From a virus (taxonomy: Duplodnaviria > Heunggongvirae > Uroviricota > Caudoviricetes): a stretch of DNA of 6,605 nt. Every line of letters begins with the position of its first letter. Position 1 is the stretch's first letter. Location: IMG/VR virus record IMGVR_UViG_2778261256_000001, one strand, 5' to 3'. Below, one piece after another: positions 159-6,605 of this stretch. The translations under genes were made by a program, and so were the position numbers. Below the pieces are notes generated by a model. That model had not been told where the DNA came from and made no database searches. It was given only the letters and a program-made list of their open reading frames with translations.

Positions 159-204
159 TATTATGCGTCCCCAGGTAATGAATAATTGCCTCTTTGCCCG
201 TCAT
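159..204 (-). pseudogene. ren: ren remnant. The first 15 codons (MTGKEAIIHYLGTHN) are interrupted by the IS10 end; the chimeric frame stops at 124-126.
   Basis: ATG at 204-202 overlaps the P stop in an ATGA arrangement as in lambda. The N-terminus matches lambda Ren, then diverges exactly at the IS terminus. Confidence 0.7.
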
Positions 205-902
205 ACACTTGCTCCTTTCAGTCCGAACTTAGCTTTAATTTCTGCGATCTTCGCCAGAGCCTGTGCACGATTTAGAGGTCTACCGCCCATAACAGGAAGT
301 TGTTTTACTGGTTCAGGTATCGTCTCACCACGGTTAATTCGCGCTGTCATACAGGTCAGTTCATCGGCAGCCTTGCGCCGTAATTCCGCATCAGTAAGCG
401 CATTGGCCCGCATGTTCTGATACAGGTTGGTAACCAGCCAGTAGTGCGCGTTTGATTTCCACGGATAAGACTCCGCATCCGGATACAGGCCTCGCTTCCG
501 GCAATACTCGTAAACCATATCAACCAGCTCGCTGACGTTTGGCAGTCCGGCGATAACGGATGCTTCTTCCCGGCACCATGCAACAAACTGCCCGGGTGAT
601 GGCAGAAATGGTCGATTCTGCCGACGGGCTACGCGCATTCCTGCGTTAACCTGTTCCATTGTGGTGATCCCGTTTTCCCGGAAAGCCAGAACCCACTGGC
701 GGCGGATTTCGTTCAGTTCGTTCTGGTCACGGTTAGCCAGACTCGCCGGGAAAGTTGCCAGTAACTGGCTGAACACACCGTTGATGATCTGCGCTACCTG
801 CTGTACCTGTGGCTTTTTGTCGTACTGTTCCGGCATGTTGTTGGCGATCCGACGCATCTGCTCACGGTCAAAGTTAACCATCTGTGCGGCGATGTTTTTC
901 AT
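201..902 (-). CDS. P: Replication protein P (DnaB helicase loader), 233 aa
   Basis: Complete ORF in the track. Sequence matches lambda P as recalled. Its start overlaps the O stop. Confidence 0.95.
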   Translation of the reverse strand: MKNIAAQMVNFDREQMRRIANNMPEQYDKKPQVQQVAQIINGVFSQLLATFPASLANRDQNELNEIRRQWVLAFRENGITTMEQVNAGMRVARRQNRPFLPSPGQFVAWCREEASVIAGLPNVSELVDMVYEYCRKRGLYPDAESYPWKSNAHYWLVTNLYQNMRANALTDAELRRKAADELTCMTARINRGETIPEPVKQLPVMGGRPLNRAQALAKIAEIKAKFGLKGASV

Positions 903-1798
903 AGATCCACCCCGTAAATCCAGTCAGTGTTTGTCAGGTCGAGTTTTGGTTTTCCGGCTGTCACGCCAGCCTGTTGCTTGTTACGGTTGATTTCGAGCTG
1001 GGTCCACTTGTCGCGGAGTTTGGCCGGACTCAGCACGTTACCGGACCAGAAGTTGTCCTGGCAGGCCCAGCGGAAAAGCACACACATATCGCGGTGGTTA
1101 CGTCCGTCACGTTCACGCATCAGGCGGATATCGTTAGCCCACCCAGCAAAATTCGGTTTTCTGGCTGATGGCGCGATGGTCTTCACCATGTCAAACATCC
1201 ACTCTGCGGCGGTCAGGTCTTCTGCTGTTCCCCACTTACTGCCGCTCTGAATTGCAGCATCCGGTTTAACCACAGAAAGATCGTTTTCTGGCTGGTCAGA
1301 GGATTCGCCAGAATTCTCGGACGAATAATCTTTTCTTTTTTCTTTTGTAATAGTGTCTTTTGTGTCCCCCTGTTTTGAGGGATAGCAATCCCCCAATTTG
1401 AGGGATGTTTTATCCCTCGTTTTAGGGGATTTTCCCTCGTTTTGAGGGATGCACCATTCTGAGATGTTTTTGTTTGGTCCAAACATGCCGCCTTGCTGCT
1501 TGATAATATTCATTCTGACGAGTTCTAACTTGGCTTCATTGCACCGTTTGACAGGTAACTTTGTAATCTCGCTAAGTTGAGAATCGGTGATTCTGTCCAT
1601 TGGTTTATTCCACCCATAGGTTTTACGCAGAATGGCAAGCAGCACTTTAAACTGTCGCTTGGTCAGATCTGCGCCCGAATAAGCCTCAAGCAGCATATTT
1701 GATAGTCTGGCGTAACCATCATCGAGATCTGCCACATTACGCTCCTGTCCGGCAAAGTTACCTCTGCCGAAGTTGAGTATTTTTGCTGTATTTGTCAT
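899..1798 (-). CDS. O: Replication initiator O, 299 aa
   Basis: Complete ORF. Matches lambda O as recalled. The origin iterons lie inside the gene. Confidence 0.95.
   Translation of the reverse strand: MTNTAKILNFGRGNFAGQERNVADLDDGYARLSNMLLEAYSGADLTKRQFKVLLAILRKTYGWNKPMDRITDSQLSEITKLPVKRCNEAKLELVRMNIIKQQGGMFGPNKNISEWCIPQNEGKSPKTRDKTSLKLGDCYPSKQGDTKDTITKEKRKDYSSENSGESSDQPENDLSVVKPDAAIQSGSKWGTAEDLTAAEWMFDMVKTIAPSARKPNFAGWANDIRLMRERDGRNHRDMCVLFRWACQDNFWSGNVLSPAKLRDKWTQLEINRNKQQAGVTAGKPKLDLTNTDWIYGVDL
1365..1450. repeat. ori: Lambda-type origin: four roughly 18-bp iterons (TCCC..TTTGAGGGAT-like, at 1365-1383, 1389-1406, 1413-1430 and 1433-1450), with an adjacent AT-rich tract at 1321-1362
   Basis: Four tandem near-identical repeats are directly visible. 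The flanking T-rich stretch is typical of the O-binding origin within the O gene. Confidence 0.85.
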
Positions 1799-1807
1799 AA
1801 TGACTCC

Positions 1808-1875
1808 TGTGGATTGATCCAGTCTTTCTACATCAGGCCTCGAAGAATTCGCCGTTCTTCGGGGCTTTTTCTTTT
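1808..1875 (+). ncRNA. oop: Candidate oop-like antisense RNA over the 3' end of cII. Putative promoter: -35 TTGAGT at 1773-1778 and -10 CATAAT at 1796-1801. Ends at an intrinsic terminator.
   Basis: Position is analogous to lambda oop. A strong hairpin plus T-run lies on the plus strand. The sequence itself differs from lambda oop as I recall it. Confidence 0.45.
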
Positions 1876-2114
1876 GTCAGGTAATTGGCAAGCCGCTTAG
1901 TCAGCTCAGCCATTTCATCGTCTTCGATTCCGTATTCCAGAACAGCCAGCATCATGCTTACCTGCGAGAAGAAACCATTCTTCCATCGGCTTACCTGATA
2001 TTCAGGAACCCCCATTGCTCGAGCGAATGTCTTCTGCCCCATCAGTGCCAGTTTGTTCAGCAAGGCTGACTCGATGCGAGCCGCTTTCTTGCTTTTAGTT
2101 GCAATAGTACTCAT
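1833..2114 (-). CDS. cII: CII-like transcriptional activator, 93 aa, diverged from lambda CII
   Basis: Shares blocks with lambda CII (RIESALLNK, SRWK, MLLAVLE). Has a Shine-Dalgarno AAGGAA upstream and sits between cro and O. Confidence 0.85.
   Translation of the reverse strand: MSTIATKSKKAARIESALLNKLALMGQKTFARAMGVPEYQVSRWKNGFFSQVSMMLAVLEYGIEDDEMAELTKRLANYLTKEKAPKNGEFFEA
1837..1875 (+). terminator. Intrinsic terminator: stem 1837-1847 pairs with 1855-1865, followed by TTTTTCTTTT
   Basis: An 11-bp stem (one G-U pair) followed by a T-run, on the plus strand. Confidence 0.6.
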
Positions 2115-2121
2115 AGATAAT
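2089..2121 (+). promoter_or_regulatory. PRE-like promoter: TTGC-N6-TTGC direct repeat (2089-2092 and 2099-2102) and -10-like GATAAT at 2116-2121, reading toward cI
   Basis: The repeat has the geometry of the CII binding site at lambda PRE and overlaps the cII start, as in lambda. Confidence 0.6.
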
Positions 2122-2190
2122 TTCCTTAATGATTAGATAGAGTTGGCTTCGCAAAGAAACGCAAAACCATAGAGATTTGTTTCTGGTAAT

Positions 2191-2221
2191 GCCCTTTTTC
2201 AGGGCGGGGATGTGTAAGAGC
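2191..2221 (-). promoter_or_regulatory. nutR: nutR: on the minus strand, boxA CGCTCTTAC (2213-2221) and boxB GCCCTGAAAAAGGGC (2191-2205)
   Basis: Both motifs are read directly and lie just downstream of cro on the PR transcript. Confidence 0.8.
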
Positions 2222-2230
2222 GTTAATAAC

Positions 2231-2461
2231 TTAAGCGGCCATTAATTCAGGCCAGATGCTTTCCCAATCAACCGGATGAAGGTCTTTGCGAGTCACTTCA
2301 CCATTGCTGAACTTCTCAATCAGAACACAAAGTGCTGCGCCCAATTCATGATTACGGCTAAGTGCTTTCCTCAAATAGCCGATAGAAGTTCCGCACTTGG
2401 TGGCAAATTCTCTCTGCTCTTCCAGTGAAAGGGAGTTCAGATACAAGCGGAGTTCTTCCAT
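2231..2461 (-). CDS. cro: Cro-like small DNA-binding regulator, 76 aa, not lambda Cro
   Basis: First gene downstream of the PR-like promoter and divergent from cI. Has Shine-Dalgarno GGAGA and a helix-turn-helix-like segment (EFATKCGTSIGYLRKAL). Confidence 0.75.
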   Translation of the reverse strand: MEELRLYLNSLSLEEQREFATKCGTSIGYLRKALSRNHELGAALCVLIEKFSNGEVTRKDLHPVDWESIWPELMAA

Positions 2462-2493
2462 TTGCTATCTCCTTCCCGTTGTTGAATAAGATG

Positions 2494-2563
2494 ATTTTAC
2501 CTGTAGGTAAAAAGCAAATCAATACCCATAGGTTATTTACCGGCAGGTAATCAAAGATAGAAT
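2494..2563. promoter_or_regulatory. OR region. PR on the minus strand: -35 TTGATT (2517-2522) and -10 TAAAAT (2494-2499). PRM-like -10 TAGAAT on the plus strand (2558-2563), placing the transcript start about at the cI ATG. Operators: TACCTGTAGGTA (2498-2509), a weak TACCCATAGGTTA (2523-2535) and TACCGGCAGGTA (2538-2549).
   Basis: Palindromic 12-mers overlap promoter hexamers with 17-bp spacing, in a divergent cI/cro arrangement. Confidence 0.7.
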
Positions 2564-2569
2564 TAAATC

Positions 2570-3256
2570 ATGGATAAATACGAACAAAGACGACTAAGGC
2601 TGATAGAGATAAGAGACCGATTCTGTAATGGAAAGGCCTCAGAGTTGGCTCGTCGAATAGAAAGGGAACCATCATACGTTTCCAGAATGCTGTATCCGGA
2701 AGGAAAAAGCGGAAAAAAACGCATTGCTGACGATATGATGGAACTAATTGAAAAATCTTTTAATCTCCCACGCGGATGGATGGACATGCTTGCAGATGGT
2801 AAAGCTGGAGCTACAGACCATCTTGAGTTTGCGGGTAACGTTCGTGCGGGTTTTGTTCCGGTAATTGGTGAAGCCGTTTTGGGAGTTGATGGCTCAGTGG
2901 ATATGATTGAATTCAGATCCGGTTGGTTAAGCATCTACAGCGGCGATAACGATGCTTACGGTCTGAAGGTTAAGGGTGACAGCATGTGGCCAAGGATTCA
3001 GTCAGGAGAATATGTTGTTATTGAACCAAATACGCCAGTACATCCAGGTGATGAAGTCTTTGTAAGGACCAAAGACGGTCACAACATGATAAAGATCATG
3101 AACAAAACAAGAGACGGTGATTATCAGTTTAGTAGCATAAACAGTGATCACCGCCCAATCACTCTTCCTGTTGAAGAAGTTGATAAAATGCATTTTGTTT
3201 CAGCTATTGTGAAACACACCAGGTACGTAGACCAGGACGATCTGCCAAAAGTTTGA
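2570..3256 (+). CDS. cI: CI-like prophage repressor, 228 aa: N-terminal helix-turn-helix and C-terminal LexA/S24-type autopeptidase domain
   Basis: Helix-turn-helix-like segment GKASELARRIEREPSYVSRML. S24-like motif KVKGDSMWP with a downstream Lys. Ala-Gly candidates at FAGN and RAGF. Divergent from cro. Confidence 0.9.
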   Translation: MDKYEQRRLRLIEIRDRFCNGKASELARRIEREPSYVSRMLYPEGKSGKKRIADDMMELIEKSFNLPRGWMDMLADGKAGATDHLEFAGNVRAGFVPVIGEAVLGVDGSVDMIEFRSGWLSIYSGDNDAYGLKVKGDSMWPRIQSGEYVVIEPNTPVHPGDEVFVRTKDGHNMIKIMNKTRDGDYQFSSINSDHRPITLPVEEVDKMHFVSAIVKHTRYVDQDDLPKV

Positions 3257-3567
3257 GGATAAAGCAGCAAGTGTTTATACCCGGCATAGTAGTCGCTGTT
3301 GTAATCATCTGCTTCATATGGGCAAAGTTATCTCCTGTAAGCTCTAAGCATACAGCTGAACTCATGAAGAAGAAGCATCTTATACATGAGGCAGAATCGA
3401 TAATTAAAAAGTTCAAAGGCATGTCATACGACGACATGTCATCAGAGCAGATTGCTATGTATAAATGCGCCATTGAGCGTCTTGACTACTTAAACGGACT
3501 CAAACCCAAACACACCCCAGTAGAATCAAAATTGCCGCAATGGCCAAGCAATCCAAATAGCTTCTGA
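3253..3567 (+). CDS. Small membrane-anchored protein of unknown function (about 98-104 aa) in the rexAB slot. The start is uncertain: TTG at 3253 overlaps the cI stop, or more likely GTG at 3271 with GAGGA at 3255-3259.
   Basis: ORF sits immediately after cI on the same strand. Hydrophobic segment VFIPGIVVAVVIICFIW is followed by a K/E-rich tail, and an intrinsic terminator follows. Confidence 0.55.
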   Translation: MRIKQQVFIPGIVVAVVIICFIWAKLSPVSSKHTAELMKKKHLIHEAESIIKKFKGMSYDDMSSEQIAMYKCAIERLDYLNGLKPKHTPVESKLPQWPSNPNSF

Positions 3568-3578
3568 CATCTCCTTTC

Positions 3579-3602
3579 AGCCCGCAAAGCGGGCTTTTTT
3601 AT
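3579..3602 (+). terminator. Intrinsic terminator: AGCCCGC-AAA-GCGGGCT followed by TTTTTT
   Basis: Perfect 7-bp GC-rich stem, 3-nt loop and T-run, directly after the small ORF and before PL. Confidence 0.75.
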
Positions 3603-3617
3603 ATCAATCCAAAAAAT

Positions 3618-3713
3618 TAATTACCTGAAAATTCAAGCAGGTAAACTCTTACATCAATTTTATTTACCTGCAGGTATAGACAACTGTTTTACCTGTAGGT
3701 ATATTTTAGGCCA
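3618..3713 (+). promoter_or_regulatory. PL/OL. PL: -35 TAGACA (3677-3682), 17-bp spacer, -10 TATATT (3700-3705), start near 3713. Operators: TACCTGTAGGTA (3690-3701) and TACCTGCAGGTA (3665-3676). A split inverted repeat TTACCTG-N10-CAGGTAA lies at 3621-3644.
   Basis: Same palindrome family as at OR. Promoter hexamers are correctly spaced. Lambda-like sequence begins at the transcript start. Confidence 0.7.
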
Positions 3714-3745
3714 TCAGCAGGACGCACTGACCACCATGAAGGTGA

Positions 3746-3776
3746 TGCTCTTAAAAATTAAGCCCTGAAGAAGGGC
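3746..3776 (+). promoter_or_regulatory. nutL: nutL: boxA TGCTCTTAA (3746-3754) and boxB GCCCTGAAGAAGGGC (3762-3776)
   Basis: boxB hairpin matches lambda nutL as recalled and lies in the N leader. Confidence 0.85.
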
Positions 3777-3933
3777 AGCATTCAAAGCAGAAGGCTTTGG
3801 TGTGTGTGATACGAAACGAAGCATTGGCCGGAAGTGCGAATCCGGATTAGCTGTCAATGTGCCATTGCTGGGTGTTTTCGTTCAGGACTACGACTCCCAC
3901 ACACAACCAAAGCTAACTGACAGGAGAATCCAG

Positions 3934-4257
3934 ATGGATGCACAAACACGCCGCCGCGAACGTCGCGCAGAGAAACAGGCTCAATGGAAAGCAGCAAATC
4001 CCCTGTTGGTTGGGGTAAGCGCAAAACCAGTTAACCGCCCTATTCTCTCGCTGAATCGCAAACCGAAATCACGAGTAGAAAGCGCACTAAATCCGATAGA
4101 CCTTACAGTGCTGGCTGAATACCACAAACAGATTGAAAGCAACCTGCAACGTATTGAGCGCAAGAATCAGCGCACATGGTACAGCAAGCCTGGCGAACGC
4201 GGCATAACATGCAGTGGACGCCAGAAAATTAAGGGAAAATCGATTCCTCTTACTTAG
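3934..4257 (+). CDS. N: Antitermination protein N, 107 aa
   Basis: MDAQTRRRERRAEKQAQWKAANPLL... matches lambda N as recalled. Shine-Dalgarno AGGAG upstream. The longer track ORF from 3802 is leader sequence. Confidence 0.95.
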   Translation: MDAQTRRRERRAEKQAQWKAANPLLVGVSAKPVNRPILSLNRKPKSRVESALNPIDLTVLAEYHKQIESNLQRIERKNQRTWYSKPGERGITCSGRQKIKGKSIPLT

Positions 4258-4812
4258 TTACTTAGATATTGGCCTTGGCTTTATCTCAATATTATATGGA
4301 TCATAGCTGGCAACTAATTCAGTCCAGTAAATATCCTCAATAGGGAATAATATATGCTTCCCGTTCCATCGGGAAAAAGTTTTGTTCAACACACCAAGCT
4401 CAATCAACTCACTAATGTATGGGAATTGTTTTGATGTAACCACATACTTCCTGCCTTCATTAAGGGCTGCGCACAAAACCATAGATTGCTCTTCTGTAAG
4501 GTTTTGAATTACTGATCGCACTTTATCGTTTTGCATCTTAATGCGTTTTCTTAGCTTAAATCGCTTATATCTGGCGCTGGCAATAGCTGATAATCGATGC
4601 ACATTAATTGCTAGCGAAAATGCAAGAGCAAAGACGAAAACATGCCACACATGAGGAATACCGATTCTCTCATTAACATATTCAGGCCAGTTATCTGGGC
4701 TTAAAAGCAGAAGTCCAACCCAGATAACGATCATATACATGGTTCTCTCCAGAGGTTCATTACTGAACACTCGTCCGAGAATAACGAGTGGATCCATTTC
4801 TATACTCATCAA
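4258..4812 (-). CDS. sieB: Superinfection exclusion protein SieB, 184 aa, membrane protein
   Basis: Same length and position (abutting the N stop on the opposite strand) as lambda sieB. Contains hydrophobic segments. Confidence 0.9.
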   Translation of the reverse strand: MMSIEMDPLVILGRVFSNEPLERTMYMIVIWVGLLLLSPDNWPEYVNERIGIPHVWHVFVFALAFSLAINVHRLSAIASARYKRFKLRKRIKMQNDKVRSVIQNLTEEQSMVLCAALNEGRKYVVTSKQFPYISELIELGVLNKTFSRWNGKHILFPIEDIYWTELVASYDPYNIEIKPRPISK

Positions 4813-4936
4813 ACTGTAGGGGTTGTAATAGTTTATCCGATTTCTCGCTGTAGGGGTACACGAGAACCACCGAGCCTGATGTGGTTAAAAGACAGGCACA
4901 ATCTTTACTACCGCTATCCACTATTTAAGGTGATAT

Positions 4937-5023
4937 ATGGAAGAAGAATTTGAAGAGTTCGAAGAGCATCCTCAGGATGTGATGGAACAATACCAGGACT
5001 ATCCGTATGACTACGACTATTGA
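4937..5023 (+). CDS. orf28, small acidic 28-aa peptide (MEEEFEEFEEHPQDVMEQYQDYPYDYDY)
   Basis: Hand-translated; too short for the ORF track. It overlaps the ral start by 17 nt, as in lambda. Confidence 0.75.
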   Translation: MEEEFEEFEEHPQDVMEQYQDYPYDYDY

Positions 5024-5207
5024 TAAAAATCAATGGTGTGGACAATTCAAGCGATGCAATGGATGCAAGCTGCAATCGGAATACATGGTTAAGCCTGAAG
5101 AAATGTTTCCTGTAATGGAAGATGGGAAATATGTCGATAAATGGGCAATACGAACGACGGCAATGATTGCCAGAGAACTTGGTAAACAGAACAACAAAGC
5201 TGCCTGA
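5007..5207 (+). CDS. ral: Ral, restriction-alleviation protein, 66 aa
   Basis: MTTTIDKNQWCGQFKRCNGCKLQSE... matches lambda Ral as recalled. Confidence 0.92.
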   Translation: MTTTIDKNQWCGQFKRCNGCKLQSEYMVKPEEMFPVMEDGKYVDKWAIRTTAMIARELGKQNNKAA

Positions 5208-5344
5208 TAGTGACCTTTATTTTTGGCATAAATAACAGAATAAACACTGCACTGTGTATTCATTCCAACGAGTGAATACACGGAGCAATGTCGCTCGTAA
5301 CTAAACAGGAGCCGACTTGTTCTGATTATTGGAAATCTTCTTTG

Positions 5345-5369
5345 CCCTCCAGTGTGAGGGAGATTTTTT
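5345..5369 (+). terminator. Candidate weak intrinsic terminator (CCCTC-loop-GAGGG then TTTTTT) between ral and ea10; may correspond to a lambda tL site
   Basis: 5-bp GC-rich stem followed by a T-run on the plus strand. Confidence 0.3.
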
Positions 5370-5389
5370 ATCTATGAGGATATGAATAG

Positions 5390-5758
5390 ATGTCAAACAT
5401 CAAAAAATACATCATTGATTACGACTGGAAAGCATCAATAGAAATTGAAATCGACCATGACGTAATGACAGAGGAAAAACTTCACCAGATTAATAATTTC
5501 TGGTCAGACTCTGAATACCGACTCAATAAACACGGCTCTGTATTAAATGCTGTATTAATCATGCTGGCGCAACATGCTCTGCTTATAGCAATTTCAAGCG
5601 ACTTAAATGCATATGGTGTTGTGTGTGAGTTCGACTGGAATGATGGAAGTGGTCAGGAAGGATGGCCTCCAATGGATGGTAGCGAAGGAATAAGAATTAC
5701 CGATATCGATACATCAGGAATATTTGATCCAGATGATATGACTGTCAAAGCCGCCTGA
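5390..5758 (+). CDS. ea10: Ea10 early protein, 122 aa
   Basis: Complete ORF. Length and position match lambda ea10. Confidence 0.9.
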   Translation: MSNIKKYIIDYDWKASIEIEIDHDVMTEEKLHQINNFWSDSEYRLNKHGSVLNAVLIMLAQHALLIAISSDLNAYGVVCEFDWNDGSGQEGWPPMDGSEGIRITDIDTSGIFDPDDMTVKAA

Positions 5759-5830
5759 GCGCGGCGTTACCGCATACCAATTACGCTTCACTCGAGGCGT
5801 TTTTCGTTATGTATAAATAAGGAGCACACC

Positions 5831-5995
5831 ATGCAATATGCCATTGCAGGGTGGCCTGTTGCTGGCTGCCCTTCCGAATCTTTACTTGAACGAATCACCC
5901 GTAAATTACGTGACGGATGGAAACGCCTTATCGACATACTTAATCAGCCAGGAGTCCCAAAGAATGGATCAAACACGTATGGCTATCCAGACTAA
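5831..5995 (+). CDS. cIII: CIII, 54 aa, inhibitor of FtsH-mediated CII degradation
   Basis: Hand translation [54 protein letters not shown] matches lambda CIII. Shine-Dalgarno GGAG upstream. Confidence 0.92.
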   Translation: MQYAIAGWPVAGCPSESLLERITRKLRDGWKRLIDILNQPGVPKNGSNTYGYPD

Positions 5996-6107
5996 ATTCA
6001 CTATCGCCACTTTTATTGGCGATGAAAAGATGTTTCGTGAAGCCGTCGACGCTTATAAAAAATGGATATTAATGCTGAAACTGAGATCAAGCAAAAGCAT
6101 TCACTAA
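5964..6107 (+). CDS. kil: Kil, 47 aa, host-killing/FtsZ-inhibiting peptide; overlaps the cIII 3' end by 32 nt
   Basis: [47 protein letters not shown] is the C-terminal part of track ORF 5838..6107. The overlap geometry is as in lambda. Confidence 0.88.
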
Positions 6108-6478
6108 CCCCCTTTCCTGTTTTCCTAATCAGCCTGGCATTTCGCGGGCGATATTTTCACAGCTATTTCAGGAGTTCAGCCATGAACGCTTATTACATTC
6201 AGGATCGTCTTGAGGCTCAGAGCTGGGCGCGTCACTACCAGCAGATCGCCCGTGAAGAGAAAGAGGCAGAACTGGCAGACGACATGGAAAAAGGCCTGCC
6301 CCAGCACCTGTTTGAATCGCTATGCATCGATCATTTGCAACGCCACGGGGCCAGCAAAAAAGCCATTACCCGTGCGTTTGATGACGATGTTGAGTTTCAG
6401 GAGCGCATGGCAGAACACATCCGGTACATGGTTGAAACCATTGCTCACCACCAGGTTGATATTGATTCAGAGGTATAA
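6062..6478 (+). CDS. gam: Gam, RecBCD inhibitor: long form 138 aa, with a short-form start at 6182 (MNAYYIQ...)
   Basis: Complete ORF. Matches lambda Gam as recalled. Confidence 0.95.
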
Positions 6479-6483
6479 AACGG

Positions 6484-6605
6484 ATGAGTACAGCACTCGC
6501 AACGCTGGCTGGGAAGCTGGCTGAACGAGTCGGCATGGATTCTGTCGACCCACAGGAACTGATCACCACTCTTCGCCAGACGGCATTTAAAGGTGATGCC
6601 AGCGA
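6484..6605 (+). CDS. bet: Bet recombinase (Red-beta), N-terminal 40 codons; continues beyond the window
   Basis: MSTALATLAGKLAERVGMDSVDPQELITTLRQTAFKGDAS matches the lambda Bet N-terminus. Starts 5 nt after the gam stop. Confidence 0.9.
   Translation, partial: MSTALATLAGKLAERVGMDSVDPQELITTLRQTAFKGDAS

Follow-up and report, generated by a model that had tools for sequence, protein, structure and literature searches.

An mEp043-Type Immunity Cassette in the Early Region of a Lambda-Like Escherichia coli Prophage

The 6,605-nucleotide stretch of viral DNA analysed here (IMG/VR record IMGVR_UViG_2778261256_000001; "the window" denotes this whole stretch) very probably comes from a natural lambda-like Escherichia coli prophage in which an mEp043-type immunity cassette, whichever lineage was the recipient, has been joined to lambda-type flanks through homologous recombination in two short conserved linkers. 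Alignment identifies the window as the lambda early region in reversed orientation, interrupted at approximately 1811-3711 by a non-lambda block, so that identity jumps from about 98% with lambda to 99% with phage mEp043 and then returns to lambda. A preliminary description, made from the letters alone, had proposed a recombinational swap of the immunity region at the classic lambdoid junctions and had recommended alignment to lambda as the check; the alignments support this proposal, the switch is abrupt at both ends, and the breakpoints could be mapped as described below.

Lambda Backbone and Junctions

Comparison of the whole window with lambda by blastn returned DNA matches at 159-1823 (97.4% identity) and 3712-6605 (98.7%), and none between 1824 and 3711 at the blastn/megablast level. 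The left flank contains O and P and the right flank runs from N through gam into the start of bet, the proteins P, O, N, sieB, ral, ea10, cIII, kil and gam being 97-100% identical to those of lambda (100% for both sieB and cIII). Outside the swapped cassette lie P (201-902, minus strand; Pfam Phage_lambda_P; 97.4% amino acid identity) and O (899-1798, minus strand; Pfam Phage_rep_O; 99.7%), the latter holding four ori iterons (1366-1450) that are all identical to lambda iterons, as well as the N antiterminator gene on the other flank (3934-4257, plus strand; Pfam N36), whose product matches lambda N at 106 of 107 residues. Between PL and N, nutL is composed of a boxA-like sequence (TGCTCTTA; 3746-3753, plus strand) and a boxB identical to lambda (3762-3776, plus strand). 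The boxB (GCCCTGAAAAAGGGC; 2191-2205, minus strand) and boxA (CGCTCTTA; 2215-2222, minus strand) of nutR are also identical to lambda, and these lie inside the swapped segment. Thus the lambda character of the flanks, and with it the retention of lambda N/nut and O/P/ori, had been correctly recognised in the preliminary description.

On the left, the final lambda-specific base of the alignment is 1802 and the earliest mEp043-specific base is 1811, which places the crossover at 1803-1810, within a 33-bp block common to lambda and mEp043 that comprises the O start codon, the Shine-Dalgarno sequence and the oop promoter and start. On the right, the crossover is held by the PL leader with nutL (3712-3806, plus strand), common to lambda and mEp043 in a three-way alignment, and mEp043 diverges from 3807 on. 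An attempt to place it more finely within 3712-3806 failed because the informative sites of this block disagree, 3729 being lambda-like and 3746 mEp043-like, and the same conflict implies that neither reference phage is the literal parent. The perfect lambda match ends at 1810 and restarts at 3712, and the breakpoints first estimated (about 1800 and 3711) were therefore correct to within about 10 bp.

The mEp043-Type Cassette

From 1791 to 3806 the window is 99.0% identical in DNA sequence to the immunity region of mEp043 (JQ182734). The encoded proteins follow the same pattern, with amino acid identities of 99.6% (227/228) for CI, 100% (76/76) for Cro, 97.8% for CII and 98% for a 98-aa open reading frame; the donor lineage, for which a database search with CI and Cro had been suggested beforehand, is on these figures the mEp043 immunity type. 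The cores of OR1, OR2, OR3 and OL1 are identical in the two phages, and OL2 is off by two central bases (TACCTGCAGGTA in the window versus TACCTATAGGTA in mEp043). Ten lambdoid phages including mEp043 were reported to form separate immunity groups, save two that share lambda's (PMC3442831), and frequent co-transfer of cI and cro has been described for lambdoid phages (PMC9836094). Other known specificities do not fit: relative to the lambda type, which is defined by lambda CI, Cro and 17-bp operators, CI is 18% and Cro 20% identical and rexAB is absent; CI is 19% identical to both the 434 and the 21 repressor, and Cro 21% to 434 Cro and 18% to 21 Cro. CI, which the preliminary description had been unable to match to lambda, 434 or P22, reaches only 18-19% identity with the lambda, 434 and 21 repressors, and these sequence comparisons support the prediction of a phage heteroimmune to lambda. 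The first reading, that cI, cro, cII and all operators between the flanks differ from lambda, needs some adjustment: the protein lengths (228, 76 and 93 aa) are exact and CI, Cro and the operators are indeed non-lambda, but cII is a diverged homologue (45% amino acid identity) and the nutR boxes are those of lambda.

The cro-like gene (2231-2461, minus strand) encodes a YdaS-family related protein, assigned to phrog_35, with a Pfam YdaS_toxin score of 26 bits that is under the cut-off; it matches the PDB entries 8co2/8c7k, "antirepressor protein Cro" (E=2e-10), for which a literature search (as 8C7K and 8CO2) returned nothing informative. The cII-like activator gene (1833-2114, minus strand; Pfam Phage_CII, E=7e-30) is 86-88% identical at the DNA level to c1 of P22-like Salmonella phages. 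A TTGC-N6-TTGC box (TTGCTTTTAGTTGC; 2089-2102, plus strand), the sole such box on its strand and also annotated in mEp043, is presumably the CII-binding site of a PRE promoter directed at cI; together with nutR, located between cro and cII, these elements make up the arrangement of a lambdoid switch. At the O-proximal end, a Po-like promoter (1773-1801, plus strand; TTGAGT-17-CATAAT with an upstream TG), lambda-identical in sequence and taken by us to be lambda Po/oop, is predicted to give rise to an oop-like antisense RNA from about 1808-1809 onwards. The corresponding intrinsic terminator (1835-1877, plus strand), with a 14-pair stem and a T run, lies opposite the 3′ end of cII in antisense orientation; it is of mEp043 type, having been inherited with cII. 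Rfam recognised only the cIII thermometer in the window and matched neither the predicted oop nor the predicted nut sites, so that oop was assigned from the promoter and terminator scan and from knowledge of lambda.

At the position of lambda rexAB, the 98-aa frame (3271-3567, plus strand) begins with GTG (the mechanically called frame opens at 3253) and encodes a protein with a hydrophobic N-terminus. It belongs to phrog_10450, of unknown function (E=1e-54), and has no match in Pfam or PADLOC; among phage records it was found only in mEp043, with weak matches in N7 and HZ41. It is probably co-transcribed with cI, the immunity operon ending in a scan-predicted intrinsic terminator (3579-3601, plus strand) that precedes OL at the same position in many related viral contigs. 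Other genomes carry the cassette next to a DUF2740 protein, its mEp043-type neighbour, and it therefore moves as a unit. It also has a mosaic make-up of its own.

The Repressor and Its Operators

The cI gene (2570-3256, plus strand) encodes a 228-aa protein with a helix-turn-helix N-domain (about residues 1-72) followed by an S24 peptidase domain (Pfam Peptidase_S24, E=1e-17) that retains the GDSM serine (S138) and the conserved lysine (K175). Pfam does not recognise the N-domain (best match MarR, E=0.1), and searching the PDB with the CI sequence yielded zero matches. A structural model of the N-domain (pLDDT 86.9) had as its top PDB match the Rep repressor of a Salmonella temperate phage (5D50), followed by XRE-type HTH proteins; a single-sequence AlphaFold model of full-length CI was discarded at pLDDT 39.7. 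The Pfam hit and the N-domain model together give the pairing of an HTH N-domain with a LexA-like S24 domain, of which the cleavage is predicted: if LexA and lambda CI are taken as the model, S138 and K175 would be catalytic and A93-G94 is the probable cleavage site.

The operator pattern TACCTGNAGGTA is found at 2498, 2538, 3665 and 3690 with at most one mismatch. Allowing up to two mismatches on both strands, nine occurrences were observed versus 1.06 expected, and nine or more were reached in none of 200 shuffles. In agreement with the non-lambda palindromes noticed at the outset, these TACCT-NN-AGGTA sites make up three OR and two OL operators. The 108 bp separating cI (plus strand) from cro (minus strand) hold the OR region (2494-2563) in the layout of a lambda-type switch, with OR1 (TTTACCTGTAGGTAAA; 2496-2511) inside PR (2522-2494, minus strand; TTGATT-17-TAAAAT), the OR2 core (TACCCATAGGTT) at 2523-2534, and OR3 (TTTACCGGCAGGTAAT; 2536-2551) inside PRM (2536-2563, plus strand; TTTACC-16-TAGAAT). 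A second set lies upstream of nutL and N, where OL2 (TTTACCTGCAGGTATA; 3663-3678, plus strand) and, 25 bp from it, OL1 (TTTACCTGTAGGTATA; 3688-3703, plus strand) are interleaved with PL (3677-3705, plus strand; TAGACA-17-TATATT), a 10/12 promoter match. PL, PR and PRM were predicted independently by a promoter scan, and each overlaps operators. The three-site OR layout recurs in Escherichia sp. E1V33, Paraburkholderia and a Rac-like prophage, and the two-site OL layout in 22 viral contigs. Searching the literature with the operator sequences brought up only irrelevant primer matches.

A split palindrome, TTACCTG-N10-CAGGTAA (3621-3644), sets two operator half-sites too far from each other by a helical turn. 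The mEp043-type loci conserve it, even two whose spacer has a substitution, and it is absent from the Paraburkholderia and Rac-like loci; its designation as OL3 was considered and not adopted, as it is kept only within the mEp043-type lineage and missing in more distant modules. The additional TTACCTG half-sites within cII (1878, 1958 and 1991) were also rejected as operators, because two of the three correspond to repeated Gln-Val-Ser codons.

Proposed Function and Alternative Explanations

The cassette begins at the oop start, takes in cII, nutR, cro, OR, cI and the 98-aa frame, and ends with OL/PL; recombination very probably took place in the O start/Shine-Dalgarno/Po block at its O-proximal end and in the PL leader/nutL block at the opposite end. 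The sequence elements and homologies described above are observations, from which the following regulatory roles are read by analogy with lambda. CI dimers would bind 16-bp sites with the TACCT-NN-AGGTA core through the XRE-type HTH N-domain; occupancy of OR1 and of OL1/OL2, which overlap PR and PL, would turn lytic transcription off, OR2, with its centre some 41.5 bp upstream of the cI start codon, appears positioned for activation of PRM, and OR3, located over PRM, may serve auto-repression. The predicted PRM start approximately coincides with the cI ATG, and we infer a leaderless mRNA from this. The OR2-OR3 spacing is 15 bp centre to centre, at which 16-bp sites would abut; the two sites may be unable to bind repressor together, and in its details the parallel with lambda may not hold. 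The S24 domain, with S138/K175 and the probable A93-G94 site, would allow RecA-stimulated cleavage of CI and make the prophage SOS-inducible. The YdaS-like Cro would bind the same operators in lytic growth, and CII would activate PRE at the TTGC-N6-TTGC box, oop RNA being antisense to cII. Each cis site travels with its cognate protein, and the shared nutL/nutR sites and the TTGC boxes should let the cassette work with lambda N and with CII-dependent promoters outside it; from these two properties it follows that the hybrid should be viable and heteroimmune to lambda.

Could the block instead be lambda's own immunity region, diverged in place by point mutation? The alignment of cII with lambda cII (45% at the amino acid level, about 60-65% in nucleotides by eye) and the conservation of nutR would suit such a history, to which we nevertheless give practically no chance: at either end the lambda identity of about 98% is lost within a few bases, beyond which the sequences do not align; CI and Cro share 18-20% of their residues with the lambda proteins and come with different operators; and these sharp boundaries, together with the 99% match of the whole block to an otherwise different phage (the mEp043 O protein is 34% identical), refute it. 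It is also very improbable that the junctions are artefactual, arising from an assembly chimera or from a laboratory-built lambda imm hybrid, of which lambda imm434, with its almost identical PL-side junction, is an example. The same arrangement is carried by 13 complete genomes of wild E. coli isolates (counted as complete genomes with the arrangement of window 159-6605 over at least 80% of the window) from different countries and from goat, human, pig, chicken and mink, and a search of phage records found no laboratory hybrid with this cassette. In the one genome examined more closely, that of strain R32_14_1F, the prophage is chromosomal and adjoins ybhC, a site that we take to be the lambda attachment site; it has lambda-like int, xis, exo, bet, gam, head and tail genes along with additional non-lambda segments, namely Q and the lysis genes.

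Less remote, and still unlikely, is the reading that the cassette now sits in a decaying, non-inducible prophage and that the functional heteroimmune phage is gone from this host. An IS10/ISVsa5 end does interrupt ren at window position 158/159 in the source prophage, which may have lost some function, and an IS1 lies within the region in another carrier. Against this, ren is not known to be essential in lambda, most carriers are without the IS, and no immunity, replication or recombination frame of the window is damaged, each being 97-100% identical to its functional counterpart in lambda or mEp043. A natural lambda-like prophage with a recombined mEp043-type cassette thus remains our preferred reading.

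Exchange of the immunity block is an ordinary, well-documented form of lambdoid mosaicism, and the present case is known in kind. It illustrates cleanly, in a natural prophage, modular exchange as a model of lambdoid phage evolution: both crossovers map to short conserved linkers at which transcripts begin (PL +1 and the oop start). It also allows the prophage to be labelled as lambda-like with mEp043-type immunity and its superinfection-immunity behaviour to be predicted. Its import beyond annotation is small; mildly new are the domain-chimeric repressor and the DNA-binding specificity that it would share with the repressors of Rac-like cryptic prophages.

Comparison with Known Immunity Systems

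The CI N-domain has kin in short CI-like repressors (about 135-140 aa) of Rac-like E. coli prophages and of a Paraburkholderia xenovorans LB400 prophage, with which it is 64-81% identical and shares the nearly invariant segment SYVSRMLYPEGK, M40, L41, Y42 and K46 being invariant. Cro is 73% identical to its E. coli Rac-like and 45% to its Paraburkholderia counterpart, and the operators of these loci are likewise of the TACCT-NN-AGGTA type, with a set of three at OR and a pair at OL. The operator motif tracks the CI N-domain and Cro across genera, and relatives that have just the C-domain in common carry other palindromes. In contrast to the repressor of the window, the short repressors have no S24 domain and are therefore presumably not RecA-cleavable; their genomic neighbours are also different (YdaT, DicB and RecE). 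The C-terminal part of CI is related to 933W-type CI of Stx phages, with 59% identity over the hinge and S24 domain and about 50% over the full length, whereas the N-domain is only 20% identical (16/78). Only two canonical OL sites have been reported for 933W as well (PMC5977221). However, 933W operators are 15-bp sites (PMC3317979), its OR has TTTATC/GATAAA-like sequences where the window has TACCT-NN-AGGTA, and the Cro proteins are 22% identical; the immunity is not of the 933W type, only the C-domain being related. Judged from these sequences, CI is a domain chimera, its N-domain having its kin in short S24-less repressors and its C-domain being 933W-like.

Such a chimera, joining a Rac-like DNA-binding domain to a 933W-type RecA-cleavable C-domain, raises the possibility, which we consider rather doubtful, that a Rac-like cryptic prophage gives SOS-insensitive immunity in trans to lambdoid phages of the mEp043 immunity type, or keeps a co-resident prophage of that type uninducible. 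Cross-immunity of this kind is conceivable because the presumed recognition segment is nearly invariant and the operator cores are the same. The Rac-like cryptic prophages that carry such short repressors are widespread in E. coli (one cluster has 543 member sequences); if true, this would amount to a cross-immunity network joining cryptic and active prophages, and a shared specificity that proved functional would be relevant to the influence of cryptic prophages on susceptibility to temperate phages.

mEp043 itself (NC_019706; Aguilavirus mEp043) has the same operators, PL, terminator and split palindrome as the window, and differs outside the cassette: its O-type replication protein is preceded by a DUF2740 gene where the window has lambda O/P, its recombination module is of the Erf type and its N is 91% identical, where the window has lambda N and the lambda pL operon. 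The nearest parallels to the arrangement as a whole are lambda imm434 and lambda imm21, in which the block of repressor, cro and operators has similarly been replaced within a lambda backbone. The PL-side junction of the window corresponds to lambda 35583, 4 bp from that of lambda imm434 (35587), and the O-side junction to approximately lambda 38661-38674, about 70 bp away from the one in lambda imm21. In specificity, the repressor, Cro and operators of the window have no relation to those of either hybrid; in comparison with imm434 the block swapped here also includes cII and nutR, and in comparison with imm21 it excludes N.

Gene Content and Lambda Backbone

The ORF list and a megablast against phage genomes identify the window as lambda's early region, oriented in reverse. 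P (201-902), O (899-1798), a cII-like gene (1833-2114) and a cro-like gene (2231-2461) lie on the minus strand, followed on the plus strand by a cI-like gene (2570-3256), a small ORF of 98 aa (3271-3567) and N (3934-4257), and on the minus strand by sieB (4258-4812), beyond which come ral, ea10, cIII, kil, gam and the first part of bet, in that order. Blastn matches to lambda cover 159-1823 (97.4%) and 3712-6605 (98.7%), with no lambda match at megablast level between 1823 and 3712. Identity to the lambda proteins is 99.7% for O, 97.4% for P, 106/107 residues for N, 100% for sieB and cIII, 98.5% for ral, 97.5% for ea10 and 97.1% for gam, but only 18% for CI, 20% for Cro and 45% for CII. All four ori iterons match lambda exactly in sequence, as do nutL boxB and nutR boxA/boxB. 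The preliminary description, which placed foreign cI, cro and cII genes (228, 76 and 93 aa) between lambda-like flanks, with breakpoints near 1800 and 3711 and with lambda N/nut and O/P/ori retained, is thus borne out, ORF sizes included.

Two further features were observed. In the lambda-derived part, the cIII mRNA thermoregulator is intact (Rfam Lambda_thermo, 5818-5876, plus strand, 88.5 bits, E = 3e-21). Positions 1-158 form the end of an IS10/ISVsa5 element of the IS4 family (end ...GGGGATCTCTCAG), inserted in ren about 15 codons past its start (lambda 40325), directly downstream of P; the 13 E. coli genomes otherwise sharing the window all lack it at this position.

Origin and Junctions of the Immunity Cassette

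The donor lineage, which the preliminary description proposed to name by searching with CI and Cro, is that of phage mEp043. Window 1750-3760 is 99.0% identical to mEp043 (JQ182734, NC_019706, PV340537) across 98% of its length, and all other phage records cover 26% of this segment at most. The blastn match spans 1791-3806, and identity reaches 227/228 for CI, 76/76 for Cro, 91/93 for CII and 98% for the 98-aa ORF. Outside the cassette mEp043 is a different phage, with an O-type protein only 34% identical and Erf-type recombination genes. That the repressor could not be placed initially is explained by its 19% identity to the 434 and 21 repressors.

On the left, a 33-bp block is common to lambda, mEp043 and the window; it takes in the start codon of O with its Shine-Dalgarno sequence and the bases that come directly after. 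Since the final lambda-specific base is 1802 and the initial mEp043-specific base is 1811, the crossover lies within 1803-1810. The promoter and terminator scans returned a Po-like promoter at 1773-1801, on the lambda side of the crossover, and an oop-like terminator at 1835-1877, on its mEp043 side, a pair that we take to be oop, so the join lies approximately at the oop transcript start. On the right, 3712-3806 is common to all three sequences and contains the PL +1, a boxA-like sequence and nutL boxB; mEp043 diverges from 3807 and lambda upstream of 3712. The informative sites within this block disagree (3729 is lambda-like, 3746 mEp043-like), and the right crossover is therefore placed no finer than 3712-3806. 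Neither of the two reference phages is the literal parent. The junctions are those classic for lambdoid exchange, as had been proposed: the PL-side junction is at lambda 35583, compared with 35587 in lambda imm434, and the O-side junction at ~38661-38674, compared with ~38590 in lambda imm21.

Such a hybrid could in principle be an assembly or laboratory artefact, but this is ruled out by its genomic occurrence: window 159-6605 is present at 99.4-100% identity in 13 complete E. coli genomes (sources: goat, human, pig, chicken, mink and pork), and in one of them, R32_14_1F, the arrangement belongs to a chromosomal prophage that adjoins ybhC, presumably at the lambda attachment site. The cassette itself occurs in 50 genomes, in some of which an mEp043-type neighbour (a DUF2740 protein) replaces lambda O. 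The claim of an otherwise lambda-like phage holds broadly for the R32_14_1F prophage, whose int, xis, exo, bet, gam, nin, head and tail genes are lambda-like. Its Q and lysis cassette differ from those of lambda, so that the backbone is mosaic beyond the window too. In this prophage (locus L003, 12613-17409) the Q-family antiterminator has 125 aa and the lysis genes are of the essD/rrrD type; cargo genes encode a lipocalin and a protein of the YbgA family.

Operators and Promoters

The TACCTG-N-AGGTA-type operators of the preliminary description are present in both regions: the palindrome TACCTGNAGGTA occurs with at most one mismatch twice in OR (2498, 2538) and twice in OL (3665, 3690). The observed number of matches (9, counting both strands with up to 2 mismatches) was reached by none of 200 shuffles. 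With the core written as TACCT-NN-AGGTA, an additional, weaker symmetric site at 2523 (TACCCATAGGTT) corresponds to OR2. An independent promoter scan predicted PL (TAGACA-17-TATATT, 3677-3705), PR (TTGATT-17-TAAAAT, 2522-2494, minus strand) and PRM (TTTACC-16-TAGAAT, 2536-2563). OL1 occupies the PL spacer and OR1 the PR spacer, each overlapping the -10 of its promoter, OL2 abuts the PL -35, PRM contains OR3, and the centre of OR2 lies ~41.5 bp ahead of the cI start codon (ATG). By analogy with lambda, CI would repress PR and PL, activate PRM from OR2 and repress it from OR3, a lambda-like switch logic qualified by an OR2-OR3 spacing of just 15 bp. The PRM transcript would start at the cI ATG, yielding a leaderless cI mRNA. 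OL has two canonical sites, and 933W likewise is reported without OL3 (PMC5977221).

A split palindrome, TTACCTG-N10-CAGGTAA (3621-3644), lies upstream of OL2, right after the immunity-operon terminator, and consists of two perfect operator half-sites with one extra helical turn between them. It is kept in mEp043-type loci, among them two whose spacer carries a substitution, and is not present in the Rac-like and Paraburkholderia modules compared. Three further TTACCTG/CAGGTAA half-sites within cII (1878-1884, 1958-1964, 1991-1997) are probably coincidental as operators, because two of them stem from repeated Gln-Val-Ser codons (CAG GTA AGC).

Repressor, CII and the 98-aa ORF

CI carries an S24 peptidase domain (Pfam E = 1e-17) with S138 in GDSM, a conserved K175 and, at A93-G94, a VRAGF motif similar to the sites at which LexA and the lambda repressor are cleaved; from these features the prophage is expected to be SOS-inducible via CI cleavage. 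Compared with the 933W-type CI of phage Stx2a_WGPS9, residues 1-75 are 16/78 identical and the remainder 94/159 (59%); the repressor is a chimera whose N- and C-domains have different relatives. The OR region of Stx2a_WGPS9 differs, with TTTATC/GATAAA-like sequences; 933W operators are described as 15-bp sites (PMC3317979). The AlphaFold model of the N-domain, built with its family alignment (pLDDT 86.9), gave as top Foldseek PDB match the Rep repressor of a Salmonella temperate phage (5D50, TM 0.8, 25-27% identity), followed by controller C-proteins, 434 Cro and lambda repressor, and is thus predicted to adopt an XRE-type HTH fold.

CII is a Phage_CII protein; cII DNA is 86-88% identical to c1 of P22-like Salmonella phages, and a TTGC-N6-TTGC box lies at 2089-2102. 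The 98-aa ORF, downstream of cI in the rexAB position, has a hydrophobic N-terminus, precedes a strong terminator (3579-3601) and belongs to phrog_10450, a family annotated as of unknown function; it is a candidate exclusion or conversion gene expressed from the prophage. In several carrier genomes, R32_14_1F among them, it is missing from the PGAP annotation.

Relatives Sharing the Operators

Scanning one genome per species for CI relatives returned two kinds. Those related in the C-domain only (Citrobacter, Erwinia, Pantoea, Photorhabdus, Proteus and others) have other palindromes upstream of the repressor gene. A prophage of Paraburkholderia xenovorans LB400 encodes a 136-aa protein with only the N-domain in common (64% over residues 1-72) and a Cro homologue (40/88 identical); its OR has three sites, as here, spaced 24/15 bp vs 25/15 in the window, and its OL two sites 25 bp apart. 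This betaproteobacterial prophage (L021, chromosome 1 locus, 2651-3960) has the same switch with a repressor devoid of S24, and about 60% of columns are invariant in a three-way OR alignment.

A database search with the N-domain found 47 proteins, mostly of 135-140 aa without S24, among them an E. coli cluster of 543 sequences (P0012). The P0012 locus, a Rac-like prophage with YdaT, DicB and RecE as neighbours, has the OR/OL layout of the cassette (Cro 53/73, N-domain 55/72 identical). This E. coli locus (L028, 2619-3500, GCA_021058705.1) encodes the S24-less repressor of 139 aa, a Cro-like protein of 93 aa and YdaT, and its putative operators are also TACCT-NN-AGGTA. Among viral contigs matching OL2 and the -35, 22 of 120 have a second site at 25-26 bp, after an operon terminator. 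The operator layouts of the relatives thus indicate that the motif goes with the N-domain and Cro, not with the C-domain. On this comparative evidence, one operator specificity appears to span a surprisingly wide host range, up to the LB400 prophage, and lambdoid phages of the imm-mEp043 type may be functionally cross-immune with cryptic Rac-like prophages, via the shared DNA-binding domain and operators.

Comparison With Known Systems

No paper describing these operators was found in the open-access literature, which is weak evidence of novelty. The cassette is a 99% copy of the immunity region of a sequenced phage, and the hybrid arrangement is already among RefSeq genomes. All of these results agree with the established view of lambdoid phages as modular; cI and cro are reported to be frequently co-transferred (PMC9836094).
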